DNA of 23,502 bases from a virus. A program made the position numbers and the translations under genes. This document shows, piece by piece, positions 1,172 to 19,531 of the stretch. Within the stretch, counting starts at the first letter, position 1. Each line of letters begins with the position of its first letter. The DNA is taken from UHGV virus genome UHGV-0080740. One strand, 5' to 3'. The notes under the pieces are model-generated. The model did no database searches. It was given only the letters and a program-made list of their open reading frames with translations, and was not told the origin of the DNA.

Positions 1172-4100
1172 GTGGTGTTTTTTATTCCTGATGTTTTTTT
1201 GTTGTGGTTTCAGAACGGTGAGATTCGGGGCCCGCGCGTTAGCGTGGGAGGTGCTCCTGTTCTTGGTACTGATGGCACTCCAGTTATGCGCGATGCCCTA
1301 AAACTGGCAGATGAAGCCACTATCACGGCGCGGATGAACGCGATCCCGCACTCAAATTACCGTGCAGTCGTGTTTACCAAAGAACAATACGCCCGCATTC
1401 CGCTACGTGATGACACCGTAGATGAGCATGCACAGGATATGCTTTATGACTTCGTTGCCGCCGGGCGCGTAGCCAGCGCAATGGACTCCGACTCCCACCG
1501 CAAAGAGGCCGCGCGTCGCCGGGTATTGTCGGAGTATTCAGATACCGGTACCGAAAAAGCAGAGAAGTATCCGTACTTTGAGGATATGGGCTTCGATAGT
1601 GTGATCGCTGACGAAGGTCACAACTACCGCAATAGCTATAAAAATGGTCGCGAAGCGTCACAACTGGCCTATCTGCCCACCAGCGCGGTGGCGCAATCGG
1701 CGCGGGATATGGCAATTAAAAACGCGTACCTGATGAAAAAGAATGGTGGGCGCGGACCGGTTCTCCTGACTGCAACGCCAGTCGTTAACACCCCGATCGA
1801 TGCATACAACATGCTTTCTCATGTGCTGCCGAAGGAATACTGGCAGAAGATGGGGATCTACGGTCCTGATGACTTCGTTAAATTCTTCGGCAAGACCAGG
1901 CTGGAAACGGTACAGAAAATCAGCGGTGAAGTTGAAGAAAAAATGGCGCTGGTGGGCTTTGAAAACCTTGATGCGCTGCGCGGCATATTCCATCGCTGGA
2001 CAACGCTTAAAACGGCGGAAGACGTTAAGGATACCGTGGAGATCCCGGAACTGGACGAACACCAGCAGGATGCACCACTTACTGAAGAACAACTGGCGGC
2101 GTATGAAGAATTACGCCAGCAGGCGGAAGCGGTGGCCAAAGCCAACAATGGCGTAACGACCTCGGTCGATGAAGACGGAGTGATTGAGCACGAGAAAGCC
2201 CGTCCGATCTTCTCAATAATCAGGGATATGGACCGCGTATGTACTGACATGGACCTGTACTATCGCCGGATCACCTATCGTTTCCTGCCGGAGTACGCCG
2301 ATGCGGTGCAGCAGCTGGCGGACAGTTTGCCTAAACAAGCCACCAGCGAAGACGACGACAGTGATGATTCAATCACGCAGCAATCGCAATACTCCCTGAT
2401 AGATAAGGGCGAGTTTATTCAGTTGCAGGTTCCGGAAGCGTTCGAGCAGGAAGTGAATAAGCGCCTGGCCAGGTTTGGCATTGACGAACAGACCGTAACT
2501 CACCCCGTTACGCCCAAATACGCGAAGCTGATTGCCACGCTGAAGGAGTTTTTCCCGGAAGGGAAGCAAATCATCTTCACCGACGAAAAAACGCAGCACC
2601 AGAAGCTCAAGCGCATTATCTGCAATGTTCTTAACCTTGAACCTTCAATGGTAGGGATCCTGAATGCTCAGACGGTTGCCGAGGCAGGTAAAACCGGTAA
2701 GAAACTGAAAGCGGTTAAACCGCCGAAAGAGTTACCGGATGAACCAACAGATGCACAGATAGCGAAATACAACGAGCAAATGGCTCTGTATGACGCCTAT
2801 ATCGCGCAGCAAAATGAAATGTCGTTGGGCGGTCTGGAAAAGATTGCAGCCGACTTCCAGGAGGGCCGGACTCCGATCATTATCTGCAACAAAAAGGCAG
2901 AGGTGGGTATCAACCTGCATCGAGGAACGACTGACATCCATCATCTGACGTTGCCATGGACACCAGCCAGTGTCGCACAGCGTAACGGTCGCGGTGCCCG
3001 AGTTGGCTCCAACCGTGCAAGCGTTCGCGTTCATTACTACTGCGGCAAGGGTTCTTTCGATGAATACCGACTGAAGACGCTGAAGCGTAAAGCAGGCTGG
3101 ATCTCCGATATCCTCCGTTCAGATAAGTCAGAAATGGAGAACGCCGACGCCAACGATATGATCGAAATGCAGATGTATACCGCTAAGGATGATGGCGAAC
3201 GTCTGGCAATGATGCAGGTTCAAATGGATAAGGCGAAAGCCGCGCAACGCGCCCGCCAGAAAGAACAGGCCGCTATCGACCTTCAGAACTACATCAAGGC
3301 GCAACATGCAGCTGGCGAGGATGTTGCGGCTCTTACCGCTGAATTAGAGCGAAGTAAAGCGGAACTTGAAAAGACCACCGCCGAGGTAGCTAAATTCAAA
3401 CAGGCGGTAATGGCCAAAGCAGCTGATAATGCAGGCTGGAAGGCCCGCTGGGGTAGCGTCCATCACACAGACCGTACGTTGTTAGCACATTATCGCGCGT
3501 CGTTGAAAAGCGCCATTCAGCGCAAGGCTAATATCACTCAAGCCATCTCCCGCTATGAGAAATTATTGAACCGTACTCAGAAGGCCGCGACGGATATCAA
3601 ACGCCTGCGCCCGCTGGTGGAGGATGCAATAAATAAAGGCATTCTGGATGTTGATCCTGATCTGGTTAACCATGCGAATGAGTTCCTTGTTATCGGCGAT
3701 CGCTCATGGCGTGTAGGCCAATACTACGATTGTGCCGGTGATATCGTTCGCATTAAGTCGCTGGACTTCGACAGCCAGCGCGCAGACGTGGAGATCATCT
3801 TTACCTTCAAAGGCACCAAATCGGGTAACTGGGATGTGAAGACGCTGGATAAACAGGTGGATGTAACTCCCGATGAAGATGCTGTTATGCAGAAAATCAG
3901 TGGTGGCGTCTCCATCGCCGGGATTAACGACATCATTTCCTGTGACGATTTCTACCGTTTCCAGCAGCGCGGCATGATCAAAATCACTGACTCATACGGC
4001 GTTCAGACTACAGAGTCAGGCTATAGCATTGATTTTGTTGGTACCTATACGGACCCACTGAAGCATGCGGTTTACCCGGATCGCCGTGACGGCGCGCTGA

Positions 4101-16875: not shown

Positions 16876-17232
16876 ATGGCTAAAATCGAGTACCATCGCG
16901 ATCGCGGTAATTACCTGGAAATATACGATCATGAATCTCTTAACGATATCAACGATGCGTTATATGAATACTGTGAAAAAACGAGCATCACAGATGCACC
17001 TGATGCATTTGTCGAGCTGCCGGTATATCTCCGCGACATCTATGCAATACGAACACCGCCCGTATCGGTGATTCACATTGGCTATGTCCGCCTGTCCATC
17101 GAAGAAGATGAAGATCGTTATATCGTGCGCCACTATACATTGGACAGAAAAGAACTTCCTAATGAATGGAACATGAGTAATTTCTACAACGGTGAATATG
17201 GCTTAAAATCCGCTAATAATTTACGGTCATAA
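16876..17232 (+). CDS. hypothetical protein, 118 aa
   Basis: ATG overlaps preceding stop (TGAATG), translational coupling; no recognisable domain. Confidence 0.55.
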   Translation: MAKIEYHRDRGNYLEIYDHESLNDINDALYEYCEKTSITDAPDAFVELPVYLRDIYAIRTPPVSVIHIGYVRLSIEEDEDRYIVRHYTLDRKELPNEWNMSNFYNGEYGLKSANNLRS

Positions 17233-17299
17233 TCTATACAGGCATGTATAACAACAACGAGCCTATTAGCTGTCAACAACGTTATTTCCTCAAATAAGA

Positions 17300-17342
17300 A
17301 AAAGCAGAAAACAAATTGTTTAAGGTCACAAATTGTGGCCTT
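17300..17342 (-). terminator. rho-independent terminator for a - strand small gene
   Basis: aaggtcacaa/ttgtggcctt hairpin followed on - strand by a U-rich tract. Confidence 0.5.
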
Positions 17343-17358
17343 GATGGAGGAGGGAGGC

Positions 17359-17580
17359 TTATTGGCTATGGCTAAAAATCAAATTAGACACTTCATGTTG
17401 CTGTAGCTCATCAAGATCCGAGGCCACAAAACCTTTTCCGAAAAACTTCACAAGTAACTCACTAGCCGCATCATTGTCACCTATTACACGAAAGTCATAC
17501 GGCAACGTCGCAAGTTGACGATGTAATCCTGCTGAGAAAGTCGAATCTAACAGCGCCCAGAATTCCCACCGCAGGATAAT
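17359..17580 (-). CDS. candidate small protein, about 73 aa, lacking canonical ATG (possible ATT or TTG start)
   Basis: Open frame ...IILRWEFWALLDSTFSAGLHRQLATLPYDFRVIGDNDAASELLVKFFGKGFVASDLDELQQHEVSNLIFSHSQ ending before the terminator; AAGAGG 5 nt before ATT at 17580. Confidence 0.25.
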   Translation of the reverse strand: MILRWEFWALLDSTFSAGLHRQLATLPYDFRVIGDNDAASELLVKFFGKGFVASDLDELQQHEVSNLIFSHSQ

Positions 17581-18077
17581 ACTCGCCTCTTAATACTGTA
17601 TATATGTTGTTACGATATGTTTTTCTGTCTCTAAAAAAAGATGTTTGAAGGGGATAAAAATATACAATTCCAACAAACGTTATTTTTAACAATTTTTTTC
17701 TTTGCGTTGACTTTCCCGGACACCTTGTCTGACCGAAGGTGCGCGAAAGCCACTTTTTCCTTCCTGAGTTATCCACAAAGTTATGCACTTGCAAGAGGGC
17801 CATTTTCTACATATTGTGGTGGCTAACAGATGAAATGAATGTAGATTAATTGAAGATAAGGAGAAAATTTGAGATGCAATCATGACGTTAATAGATAGGG
17901 TCTGCATTACAGACCCCACCCGCATCAAGGAATTAGCCGTTCCCTGATGTTTTTCCGAAAACATGTGCCGTAAGCTCACGTTAACGACTTTCATTCACCG
18001 AATCCAACTATATAGGGGTTGGGTTTCTACGTCAACGTGAGCAAGTGCACCTTTACATTTGACAAGGAACCACCTGA

Positions 18078-18215
18078 ATGAACGCTTTTTTTCAGTTCCT
18101 GAGTGCATTTTTAGATGCGCCTATTATTAGCCAGATTCTGGCTATTATCCTCATCATCGTTTTGATTTTGCTTTTAAGGTCAGTAAAAAATGGAATTATG
18201 CACTGGCTTACTTAA
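18078..18215 (+). CDS. candidate small hydrophobic membrane peptide, 45 aa
   Basis: MNAFFQFLSAFLDAPIISQILAIILIIVLILLLRSVKNGIMHWLT; SD AAGGA 9 nt upstream; below the ORF-track size cutoff. Confidence 0.4.
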   Translation: MNAFFQFLSAFLDAPIISQILAIILIIVLILLLRSVKNGIMHWLT

Positions 18216-18290
18216 TGTTTCAGTGAAACATTAAAATCTCCTTGATGTGGAAACAATCATTTTCTGTATGTGCTGGTGGGCACCTGTAGT

Positions 18291-18653
18291 TCAGCTTTCG
18301 TTGGCATTTAACTTCGTCTTTGCTTTCTCCACCAGCAACTTCCAGATGCCTATTTCATTAGCAGCCGCCTTGATGGCGGCATAAAAAGCATCTTGCTGAT
18401 CGTAACGCTGGATCTGTTTTTTCAGTTTTGCCTCCACCAATTTAATTTCATTACGTGCTTTCTGAAGCCGCATCACCGCCCGGTTACGTCTGTTCTTGTA
18501 TAGCGTGTTAATCTCTGACAATTGCTTTAATTTACCAGCCTGACTGCGGATTATCGCCTCCCTGGCTTCTGCCGTGCGTATCATCTGATCTCTTAAGAGT
18601 TCACCGTTTTCGATAATTCTTTCAAGGTGTTTGATGTGATCTGCAACTCTCAT
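18291..18653 (-). CDS. hypothetical coiled-coil protein, 120 aa
   Basis: Start overlaps stop of upstream gene; last gene of a - strand operon. Confidence 0.55.
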   Translation of the reverse strand: MRVADHIKHLERIIENGELLRDQMIRTAEAREAIIRSQAGKLKQLSEINTLYKNRRNRAVMRLQKARNEIKLVEAKLKKQIQRYDQQDAFYAAIKAAANEIGIWKLLVEKAKTKLNANES

Positions 18654-19531
18654 ACTTCACCCTCGCTTGTATCACCAGCGTCCACCAACGACAATAAAGC
18701 CCTGGCCATCTTATGAACCAACAGTGCATCAATAATGCCAAGCGTATGCCCCGGCTTAATGTTTAATGCTGCCTCAAGATGACACCTTTCCAGACCGCTT
18801 TTCTCGGCTTGTTTATGATGATATGGCGTAATAACGTCGCCCAAAACACGGCTAATTCTTTCTCGTAATTGCTGGGTGCCAGCACACTTGATCGCTGTAT
18901 CGTGGAGACGGTTAACCAGTTCGCGATAAACATGCGGCTTAATGCGGATACGTTCACCGGTGACGCCCTTTCCTGGCGTAGGCACCGAACTATCCGGAAT
19001 ATCCGGATAGTTGCCAGCCAGTCTACGCAAAACAGCCTTAATTGCATCAATACGGTCATCATCAACTTTTTCTACAATATTGGAATTTAAATACTTCGAA
19101 GCCTTGCTATGCCAATCGCTGGTTTTAGGGTCTTGTCCATCCATCAAACGCCAAGCTTCAGCGATTAACTCATAGCCAGTAACAGTGGCTTCCTGCGCAT
19201 CACCAATCAGTTGTGTGATCTCTCTTTCAAGCATGCTTAGAGCGTTAGGCATTGGTTTTTCTTCCGGTACTACTGGAACGGGGGGAGCGGCGTAGACCTC
19301 AATAATTCCATTATCAATAGGCCATTCTCCATCCTTGAGGTAGTCACTTGTGCCGTCAACTTGCTGTTCTGCAATGTGGAATGCACCTATTGGTTTTGCT
19401 TCCAGTGATGCCAGAGCAATTCGTGCCAGTTCTTCCGCTTCTTCTGCTGGCAGTACAACGTTGCTACCAGGTCCGTATGTTTCGCGCCACTGCTTGATTG
19501 TCAGTAGTCGCTCTTTGGTAATAGTGGTCAT
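18650..19531 (-). CDS. hypothetical protein, 293 aa
   Basis: Long ORF, overlapping start/stop with both neighbours. Confidence 0.6.
   Translation of the reverse strand: MTTITKERLLTIKQWRETYGPGSNVVLPAEEAEELARIALASLEAKPIGAFHIAEQQVDGTSDYLKDGEWPIDNGIIEVYAAPPVPVVPEEKPMPNALSMLEREITQLIGDAQEATVTGYELIAEAWRLMDGQDPKTSDWHSKASKYLNSNIVEKVDDDRIDAIKAVLRRLAGNYPDIPDSSVPTPGKGVTGERIRIKPHVYRELVNRLHDTAIKCAGTQQLRERISRVLGDVITPYHHKQAEKSGLERCHLEAALNIKPGHTLGIIDALLVHKMARALLSLVDAGDTSEGEV

Follow-up and report, generated by a model that had tools for sequence, protein, structure and literature searches.

What does the kilobase at positions 17240-18290 of the virus genome UHGV-0080740 contain, and is it a single locus? This genome is a P1/P7-like phage-plasmid, from which we have analysed one stretch of 23,502 nucleotides (nt), the window; all coordinates refer to it unless otherwise indicated. 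The kilobase is poor in open reading frames (ORFs), and an earlier note, made from the letters alone, had suggested that it is a locus for a small toxin or membrane peptide, under the control of RNA or protein. We find that it is a mosaic junction in a known variable region, one of the eight which are highly variable in P1-like phage-plasmids (PMC9603915). Its left half is made up of a gene remnant and a captured host promoter, which ends the idea of one locus. The proposal of a small toxin or membrane peptide with RNA control holds as the best reading for the right part, 17826-18290. Quite possibly this part is a type I toxin-antitoxin-like cassette, in which a hydrophobic peptide of 45 amino acids would be kept silent by an antisense RNA. 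We arrive at this tentative reading from three observations: the anatomy of the segment, its pattern of conservation and signals of RNA structure which are specific to one strand. The transcripts, their regulation and any toxicity of the peptide are what we propose on this basis.

The segment 17826-18290 is found only in P1-like elements, according to DNA and protein searches which covered plasmids, phages, E. coli genomes, viral contigs and metagenomes. It is present in 216 of 5426 complete E. coli genomes (about 4%), nearly always on plasmids. The loci fetched by that stage contained 58 full-length copies, which correspond to 21 distinct sequences. Three allele groups can be distinguished: that of the window and P7, that of P1 (about 96.6% identical) and a third type with about 81% identity, which we call the diverged allele. 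More distant relatives were sought for covariation among word-indexed proteins, 1.84 billion protein representatives, species-representative genomes, viral contigs and metagenomes, and only the same three groups were found. Two extra pattern matches in viral contigs are due to chance. One genome match is a 221-bp contig (JQCU01000035.1, from an Acinetobacter idrijaensis assembly), identical to 17742-17962 of the window and most likely a P1-derived contamination.

The neighbours of the cassette vary on both sides, with hot or remnants on the left and pmgV or hsdM on the right; because of these changes it appears to be kept as a unit. In the diverged type, hot is found on one side of the cassette and a type I restriction-modification hsdM/hsdS cassette, not pmgV, on the other. 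In the corresponding plasmids (loci L007, L008, 3677-6135) it abuts hsdM and hsdS in place of pmgV, and it thus marks the edge of a cargo-exchange hot spot.

We have compared the window allele with the diverged allele region by region, as shown in Table 1. The leader core is by far the most conserved region: just 3 substitutions are found in 17956-18041, between alleles which are 24–36% apart elsewhere. A run of 22 nt, GATAAGGAGAAAATTTGAGATG, is invariant in all alleles. Control by RNA, as offered in the earlier note, is supported by prediction in three respects: the leader is the most constrained region, it presents comparative signatures of RNA structure, and the antisense promoter is invariant. 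The palindromes which the note had linked to this control are not conserved.

The core appears to be structured on the minus strand. A near-consensus minus-strand promoter is predicted at its right end, and both hexamers are invariant in all 21 alleles. It corresponds to the predicted 'PupfN' of the P1 record (P1 86172-86200; the plus strand of the window is the reverse complement of the P1 coordinates). The RNA predicted from this promoter would fold into three stem-loops (SL1, SL2 and SL3). For 17860-18003, the minimum free energy is -45.5 kcal/mol (z -3.55) on the minus strand versus -34.1 (z -2.45) on the plus strand, and the consensus structure of the six distinct core sequences gives -42.5 kcal/mol versus -27.6. 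With 70-nt sliding windows, the minus strand is favoured by 6–11 kcal/mol across 17860-18010, the plus strand is favoured outside. The switch between folding strands falls at about 18000, which is where the minus-strand promoter would start transcription. Structures specific to the plus strand, namely the hairpin at 18000-18026, with three G.U pairs which only form on this strand, and the pairing of the Shine-Dalgarno sequence (SD) of the peptide, lie outside the antisense region. The diverged allele yields the same minus-strand fold. Among the core sequences, the changes in SL3 comprise one compensatory pair (U-A to C-G), three G.U pairs which become A-U and one break, and the 3 substitutions in SL2 are all in the loop. 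A covariance model of the predicted RNA found no paralogues in the window. Duplex predictions between the antisense RNA and the parts of the mRNA which do not overlap it were no better than those of shuffled sequences.

The plus strand contains the 45 amino acid ORF described in the earlier note. It is indeed conserved as an ORF between alleles which are 24% apart in DNA. It has 45 codons in all three allele groups (in P1 it is on the complement of 85995-86129); start, stop and SD spacing are retained despite 33 substitutions. The peptide of the diverged allele is MIVFFQFLSAFLNAPVLSQVLAIVFIVVLIWFFKSVINRGVRWLI, and the replacements are mostly conservative (I/V, L/F, K/R), with a dN/dS of 0.41. 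The hydrophobic core has a mean Kyte-Doolittle value of 3.4 here and 2.8 in the diverged allele, and the C-terminus is basic. The ORF thus has the features expected for a type I toxin: less than 60 amino acids, hydrophobic, with one membrane-spanning helix. The GGA core of its SD (18065-18070) has an unpaired probability of about 0, and the site is predicted to be sequestered. In the diverged allele, 5 of the 6 pairs which close it are kept by means of a G.U wobble on the plus strand; on the minus strand only 3 of 6 would be kept.

Two other hairpins are found inside the coding sequence (CDS), both on the plus strand. One of them, GTGCATTTTTAGATGCGC at 18103-18120, is terminator-like, with a T-rich tract behind it; the diverged allele retains all 7 pairs, one G.U having become A-U, and it might be an attenuator or a part of the mRNA fold. 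The other, at 18162-18183, keeps 8 of 9 pairs, one of which has changed on both sides (U-A to G-C). This paired change coincides with the replacements L31W and L33F: coincidence or constraint at the RNA level are both possible.

The leader carries a strong, invariant SD, AAGGAG, with an unpaired probability of about 1 in the predicted fold. The mini-ORF which follows, also pointed out in the earlier note, does not have a stable length: it is reduced to ATG TAA in the diverged allele. A second leader ORF, with 21 codons, retains its length, and 6 of its 7 codon changes between alleles alter the amino acid, so its peptide sequence is not conserved. We have rejected the 21 and 25 amino acid leader ORFs as proteins, since the replacements are mostly non-synonymous or the changes are too few to judge.

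Perfect hairpins whose arms reach 7 bp or more are enriched here. Eight were scored, which correspond to 4 distinct palindromes; the value for dinucleotide shuffles was 0.74 ± 1.0, and not one shuffle out of 300 had as many hairpins. Two ATGTTT/AAACAT palindromes had been proposed as control elements. Both are present, and the second one, given as ATGTTTCAgTGAAACAT at 18215-18231 and overlapping the TAA stop, is in fact larger than described (Table 1). Palindrome 1 is degenerate in P1 (ATGTTGT) and in the diverged allele. A 1-nt deletion affects palindrome 2 in the commonest P1 allele, and 7 of its 10 pairs are left in the diverged allele. They are the least conserved pieces between alleles, and we have ruled them out as operators. 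All the features which the earlier note had listed can be read in the sequence where it had placed them.

Table 1. Features of the variable region and of its surroundings, followed by the divergence between the window allele and the diverged allele
Feature	Position	Strand	Remarks
upf93.6-like gene	16876-17232	+	Left neighbour of the ORF-poor kilobase
3' remnant of 174 amino acid primase-like gene	17306-17575	-	DNA homology reaching about 17575
Hairpin AAGGCCACAATTTGTGACCTT, then T-rich tract	17322-17342	-	Terminator-like 3' end of the remnant gene
5'-truncated remnant frame	17359-17559	-	Primase-like gene, last 66 codons and stop; 5' two-thirds missing
humD-upstream intergenic remnant with half LexA box	17577-17678		Alignment with plasmid pAVS0225-A
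Host-derived nrdA-promoter upstream regulatory segment	17679-17807	+	129 bp, 94–95% identity to the E. coli chromosome
Double DnaA box TTATCCACA-aag-TTATGCACT	17769-17789	+	Full site gTTATCCACAaagTTATGCACTt
Inferred sigma-70 promoter TTGCAA-17-TATTGT	17789-17817	+	In register with E. coli nrdA TTGCAA-17-TATCTT
Exposed strong SD AAGGAG and mini-ORF ATG CAA TCA TGA	17858-17885	+	SD 17858-17863, mini-ORF 17874-17885; TGA overlaps the following ATG
21-codon leader ORF	17882-17947	+	Spans the antisense-target region; length retained between alleles
Predicted cis-antisense RNA	17886-18000	-	About 110 nt, three stem-loops; both ends inferred
SL3	17893-17921	-	Predicted stem-loop
Perfect hairpin GGGTCTG-catta-CAGACCC	17898-17916		Described in the earlier note
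SL2	17923-17949	-	Predicted stem-loop
Palindrome 1 ATGTTTTtccgAAAACAT	17947-17964		Present in the window
SL1	17955-17987	-	Predicted stem-loop
Long inverted repeat enclosing the hairpin 18000-18026	17974-18042	+	GCTCACGTTAACG (17974-17986) / CGTCAACGTGAGC (18030-18042), 13 bp, one mismatch; described in the earlier note
Promoter TTGACG-17-TATAGT	18007-18035	-	10/12 matches to consensus
Peptide SD AAGGAAC paired with GUUCCU in codons 6–8	18064-18100	+	Predicted fold
45 amino acid hydrophobic peptide gene MNAFFQFLSAFLDAPIISQILAIILIIVLILLLRSVKNGIMHWLT	18078-18215	+	SD AAGGA 9 nt 5' of the ATG; one predicted membrane-spanning helix
Palindrome 2 TTAATGTTTCAGTGAAACATTAA = TTAATGTTTCA-G-TGAAACATTAA	18212-18234		Perfect, 23 nt (11+1+11), across the stop codon
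3' element UCCUUGAUGUGG	18239-18250	+	Complementary to leader segment CCGCAUCAAGGA (17920-17931); 12-bp pairing in the minimum-energy fold
pmgV	18291-18653	-	Right neighbour of the ORF-poor kilobase
nrdA-like upstream region	17679-17795		32% divergence
-35 to start	17790-17826		27% divergence
Proximal leader	17827-17860		30% divergence and a 19-nt insertion
Leader core	17861-18040		8.9% divergence
Distal leader	18041-18077		36% divergence
CDS of the 45 amino acid ORF	18078-18215		23.9% divergence
3' tail	18216-18290		29% divergence

How might such a cassette work? Transcription of the plus strand would begin near 17824, driven by the captured nrdA upstream region and its double DnaA box, -35 and -10. 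This mRNA would have a leader of about 250 nt, with the exposed SD and the short leader ORFs, followed by the ORF for a membrane peptide with a single helix. Ribosomes would load at the 5' SD and the leader ORFs, the ribosome binding site of the peptide itself being closed in a local hairpin. The minus-strand promoter would make a constitutive antisense RNA, fully complementary to the leader, which would pair with it up to the start of the 21-codon ORF. Such pairing would block ribosome loading or leader ORF translation, or it might trigger cleavage of the duplex, and the membrane peptide would remain silent. Loss or dilution of the antisense RNA, for example when the plasmid is lost or promoter activity surges, would allow synthesis of the peptide.

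Type I toxin-antitoxin systems follow this logic, and we infer by analogy that the layout of Ldr/Rdl is the closest one. Ldr/Rdl, tisB/istR-1 and zorO/orzO combine a small hydrophobic peptide, a long structured leader, an RNA from the opposite strand and a sequestered toxin SD. The cassette resembles Ldr/Rdl, and more loosely the other two, in its single-helix hydrophobic peptide, its long structured 5' leader and its SD, predicted to be sequestered. The predicted small RNA on the opposite strand would also pair with the leader well 5' of the toxin ribosome binding site. On the other hand, there is no sequence similarity to Ldr/Rdl, the peptide is longer (45 amino acids), the location is a phage-plasmid, and the promoter is a captured nrdA promoter with DnaA boxes, neither controlled by LexA nor constitutive; the toxin role is putative here. 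A supposedly shared 'D-x-A-A-P-I' motif had suggested membership in Ldr/Fst. We have rejected it: BLASTP gave no alignment with LdrA, and the Pfam and NCBIfam profiles showed no similarity.

The hok/sok system of plasmid R1 is also plasmid-borne, with leader ORFs headed by a strong SD. As in mok, one leader ORF starts at the edge of the antisense-target region, and the 12-bp pairing between 5' and 3' ends in the window allele resembles fold-back inhibition. The differences are clear: there is no overlap between the leader ORFs and the peptide ORF, neither a Hok signature nor a family match is found in the peptide, and the predicted antisense RNA is longer, with three hairpins. The 5'/3' pairing is lost in the diverged allele, and we do not rely on hok-like inhibition.

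Several results weigh against a toxin-antitoxin cassette. The loss of the 5'/3' pairing is one of them (-21.5 kcal/mol here versus -8.9 in the diverged allele). A promoter with 10/12 matches arises by chance in 41% of shuffles, and the predicted RNA does not have a canonical terminator with a U-tail. No family of known toxins (Hok, Ldr, TisB, Ibs, ShoB, DinQ, ZorO, Fst) or antitoxins (Sok, Rdl, Sib, IstR and others) could be recognized: the peptide has no match in Pfam or NCBIfam (E up to 1, for Pfam also up to 10) or in PADLOC, and the RNA has no relevant match in Rfam, either at the gathering threshold or with E up to 10. PHROGs has no family matching the peptide. A literature search found no transcript, translation or toxicity data for either strand, and no P1 transcriptome or report of a type I toxin for this region; it did not include the P1 genome paper. 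As only three allele groups exist, covariation rests on very few independent events. The CDS diverges nearly as fast as the non-coding flanks, and its substitutions by codon position (12, 8 and 13) show no excess in the third position. Finally, there are alleles of the ORF which are frameshifted or truncated by insertion sequences (IS). In plasmid pNord122_1 (fetched locus 3001-3829), the ORF is cut by IS1 behind codon 41. When 1.84 billion proteins were searched with phmmer, P1-type alleles were the only matches, and those listed have frameshifted or truncated C-termini.

Such damaged alleles, which persist with the antisense promoter intact, give no sign that the peptide needs to be neutralised. 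They lead to the alternative which survives best, although we consider it unlikely: the ORF codes for a real but harmless small membrane protein, which might for example modulate a host membrane protein, act in exclusion or time lysis. The DnaA-box promoter would drive its expression, the structured leader would control it, and the antisense promoter would provide ordinary antisense control or be irrelevant. The evidence from ORF and leader would be the same in this case, and the peptide matches no toxin family. A knock-down of upfN and upfO, ORFs annotated in P1 on the opposite strand, leaves lytic growth unaffected, as do the deletions cited by that study (PMC10695390). The region is therefore dispensable for lytic growth, which fits an accessory module. 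Nevertheless, constraint is far stronger on the leader and antisense region than on the protein, as would fit an RNA which silences a harmful product. Moreover, the standard type I layout is recognizable in the peptide (its size, single helix and basic C-terminus), in the long leader and in the convergent antisense promoter. The phd-doc addiction genes are also at a distance of just about 2 kb, and accessory cargo abounds in this region.

It is improbable, in our opinion, that the RNA alone is functional. The region about 17886-18040 would then be a trans-acting small RNA from the minus strand, or a terminator or processing element for leftward transcription, and the ORF would be fortuitous in AT-rich DNA. 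This would agree with a core which is better conserved than any other part and has its best fold on the minus strand, and also with the weak coding signal. We have simulated 33 random substitutions: the ORF remains intact in 14% of cases, and a similarity such as that observed is found in 12% of the intact ones, which gives a joint value of about 0.017. In view of the lack of a third-position bias, we consider this retention supportive of a gene, but not strongly so. The ORF is also absent from the P1 and P7 reference annotations, and PGAP leaves the window-type allele uncalled in an identical plasmid, while it calls a CDS in the P1-type allele (WP_000123562.1). In fact, RefSeq has no annotated CDS across the plasmid stretch which is 100% identical to the region. 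Against an RNA alone stand the retention of frame, length, start, stop, SD spacing and hydrophobicity, and the hairpin which closes the SD, maintained by wobble pairs which can form just on the plus strand. The ORF travels with the rest of the cassette, as one unit, from one set of neighbours to another, and the RNA has neither a U-tail nor an Rfam relative.

It is very improbable that RNA and peptide are both functionless, leaving a DNA-level element (DnaA titration, regulation of hot, a recombination anchor at the edge of the cargo hot spot) or a neutral scar: the double DnaA box is a proven strong site and nearly invariant, and the region is variable, with IS elements, gene remnants, swapped cargo and many palindromes, but DnaA boxes cannot account for an 86-nt stretch with just 3 substitutions 180–270 bp downstream, G.U patterns specific to one strand and loop-only substitutions would be unexplained, no P1 late-promoter box is found in the cassette, the known P1 origins and the pac, lox and par sites presumably lie elsewhere in the genome, and a scar would not be expected to keep 91% identity while its surroundings fall to 64–76%.

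A type I toxin-antitoxin-like cassette would change the annotation of this region. The earlier note had described it as poor in ORFs, and this is correct: the longest ones found mechanically are two 102 amino acid ORFs on the minus strand, both lost in the diverged allele. We have compared the region with its P1 counterpart, as the note had suggested. The prior annotations consist of an 'nrdA-like promoter', DnaA boxes and hypothetical minus-strand ORFs; neither a known P1 origin nor a structural RNA is found among them. A tRNA scan and Rfam at the gathering threshold detected nothing in the window. The minus-strand ORFs are upfM, upfN and upfO in P1, and upf91.3 to upf91.7 in P7. They correspond to the same DNA, and PupfN is the antisense promoter which we propose; the difference is that the conserved ORF is on the plus strand. 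The upfN-like ORF has 102 amino acids here, 65 in P1 and 42 in the diverged allele (L007), and its ATG is lost in both P1 and L007. We have discarded upfM and upfN as genes: they are interrupted or absent in the diverged allele, and to judge from this comparison they probably are not genes. The same probably holds for upfO (P1 86403-86543), which is partly in P1-specific DNA to the left of 17739 and was not traced in L007, the comparison having covered upfM and upfN.

P1 serves as a reference phage and as a workhorse for cloning. With a real cassette, the reference annotations of P1 and P7 would be on the wrong strand (upfM, upfN and probably upfO, instead of the conserved 45 amino acid ORF), and P1 would have a second killing or stabilising element beside phd-doc, controlled by RNA. 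Judging from the sequence, the conserved plus-strand peptide gene, with its structured leader and its probable antisense RNA, appears to be undescribed as far as the literature shows; it would be a new family in a known kind of system. Should the cassette prove not to be real, this is an ordinary recombination scar in a known variable region. P1-like phage-plasmids, present in about 4% of complete E. coli genomes, spread resistance genes (PMC9603915).

The promoter which would drive the peptide comes from the host. The nrdA-like segment matches the chromosomes of all 5426 complete E. coli genomes with 94–95% identity; its counterpart is located immediately 5' of nrdA, under the ypaB annotation. 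The homology stops at 17807, about the -10 box. The sequence 3' of this point is unrelated, and the nrdA leader and genes are absent. This finding is not new: both GenBank M95666, which labels the P1 counterpart 'nrdA-like promoter', and the P1 record note the promoter and its DnaA boxes. Letter by letter, the double DnaA box agrees with the nrdA site to which DnaA binds in ChIP-seq, found in one of just 16 DnaA-bound regions (PMC11317965). It is the same in the three main allele groups, single-base variants are found in two rare alleles. Between the window and the diverged allele, the 29 nt over the DnaA boxes and the -35 show no substitutions. The plus-strand promoter scores 8/12, below the threshold of our scan; we infer from its register with the nrdA promoter that transcription starts at about 17822-17826. 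The E. coli nrdAB promoter is controlled by DnaA, Fis, IciA, NrdR and an upstream inverted repeat (PMC2500167). Here we find an identical double DnaA box, with -35 and -10 in their native register, but the reductase genes are absent, as well as the nrdA leader and the NrdR-box region at the 3' side, and the promoter is fused to an unrelated phage leader. We take the E. coli region 3' of the -10 box to carry a second NrdR box.

A distinctly doubtful extension is that the DnaA-sensing half of the host nrdA promoter has been fused to a membrane-toxin gene guarded by an antisense RNA, the toxin mRNA following the level of DnaA-ATP or replication stress. If true, this would be a type I cassette coupled to replication status, possibly a second addiction or abortive-infection device beside phd-doc. 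In any case, the captured promoter is a testable example of a mobile element which borrows a host switch controlled by the cell cycle and DnaA.

The upstream part of the nrdA-like segment (17679-17795) is 25% diverged from the P1 copy, while elsewhere the cassette shares about 97% identity with P1. Such a contrast points to a recombination patch, which may come from the host or from another phage-plasmid. The same borrowed promoter is found in another phage-plasmid family. In plasmid pAVS0225-A (3140-3365), an nrdA-like promoter with a double DnaA box has a GC hairpin and a T-run about 70 nt behind it. This resembles a small-RNA unit driven by the borrowed promoter.

As for the setting of the cassette, the 1.5 kb around it are 98.7% identical to Salmonella phage SJ46 and to P7, whose match is interrupted by IS903; several records filed as P1 share the same identity over 1.5 kb. 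The P1 reference genome only matches the window from 17739 rightwards. The genes phd-doc and humD are found about 1–2 kb to the left of the kilobase. On the other side, a minus-strand protein at 18650-19531, just upstream of pmgV and PmgT-like by position, gives a weak PADLOC match to PglZ (E 0.001, 15.6 bits), which is probably noise.

The left part of the kilobase, 17233-17678, is decayed DNA: the sequence identifies what is left of the 3' part of a primase-like gene, terminator hairpin included, and of the region upstream of humD. The minus-strand ORF 17359-17505 matches phrog_17952 'DNA primase' (E 2.4e-26). When the frame is translated from 17580, BLASTP gives 88% identity to residues 109–174 of a 174 amino acid protein of phage PhiR41_1 (E 4e-40), and the hairpin at 17322-17342 aligns with the 3' end of the intact gene in this phage. 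The IS903 of P7 is inserted inside this remnant (fetched P7 locus 2997-4053). In the humD-upstream remnant, half of a LexA box, TACTGTATATAT, is found at 17594-17605 and its right half is gone; an intact box, TACTGTATATGCATACAGTA, adjoins humD in pAVS0225-A. This plasmid and phage PhiR41_1 belong to a separate phage-plasmid family of about 110 kb, which has host-like metG and apbC genes beside humD.

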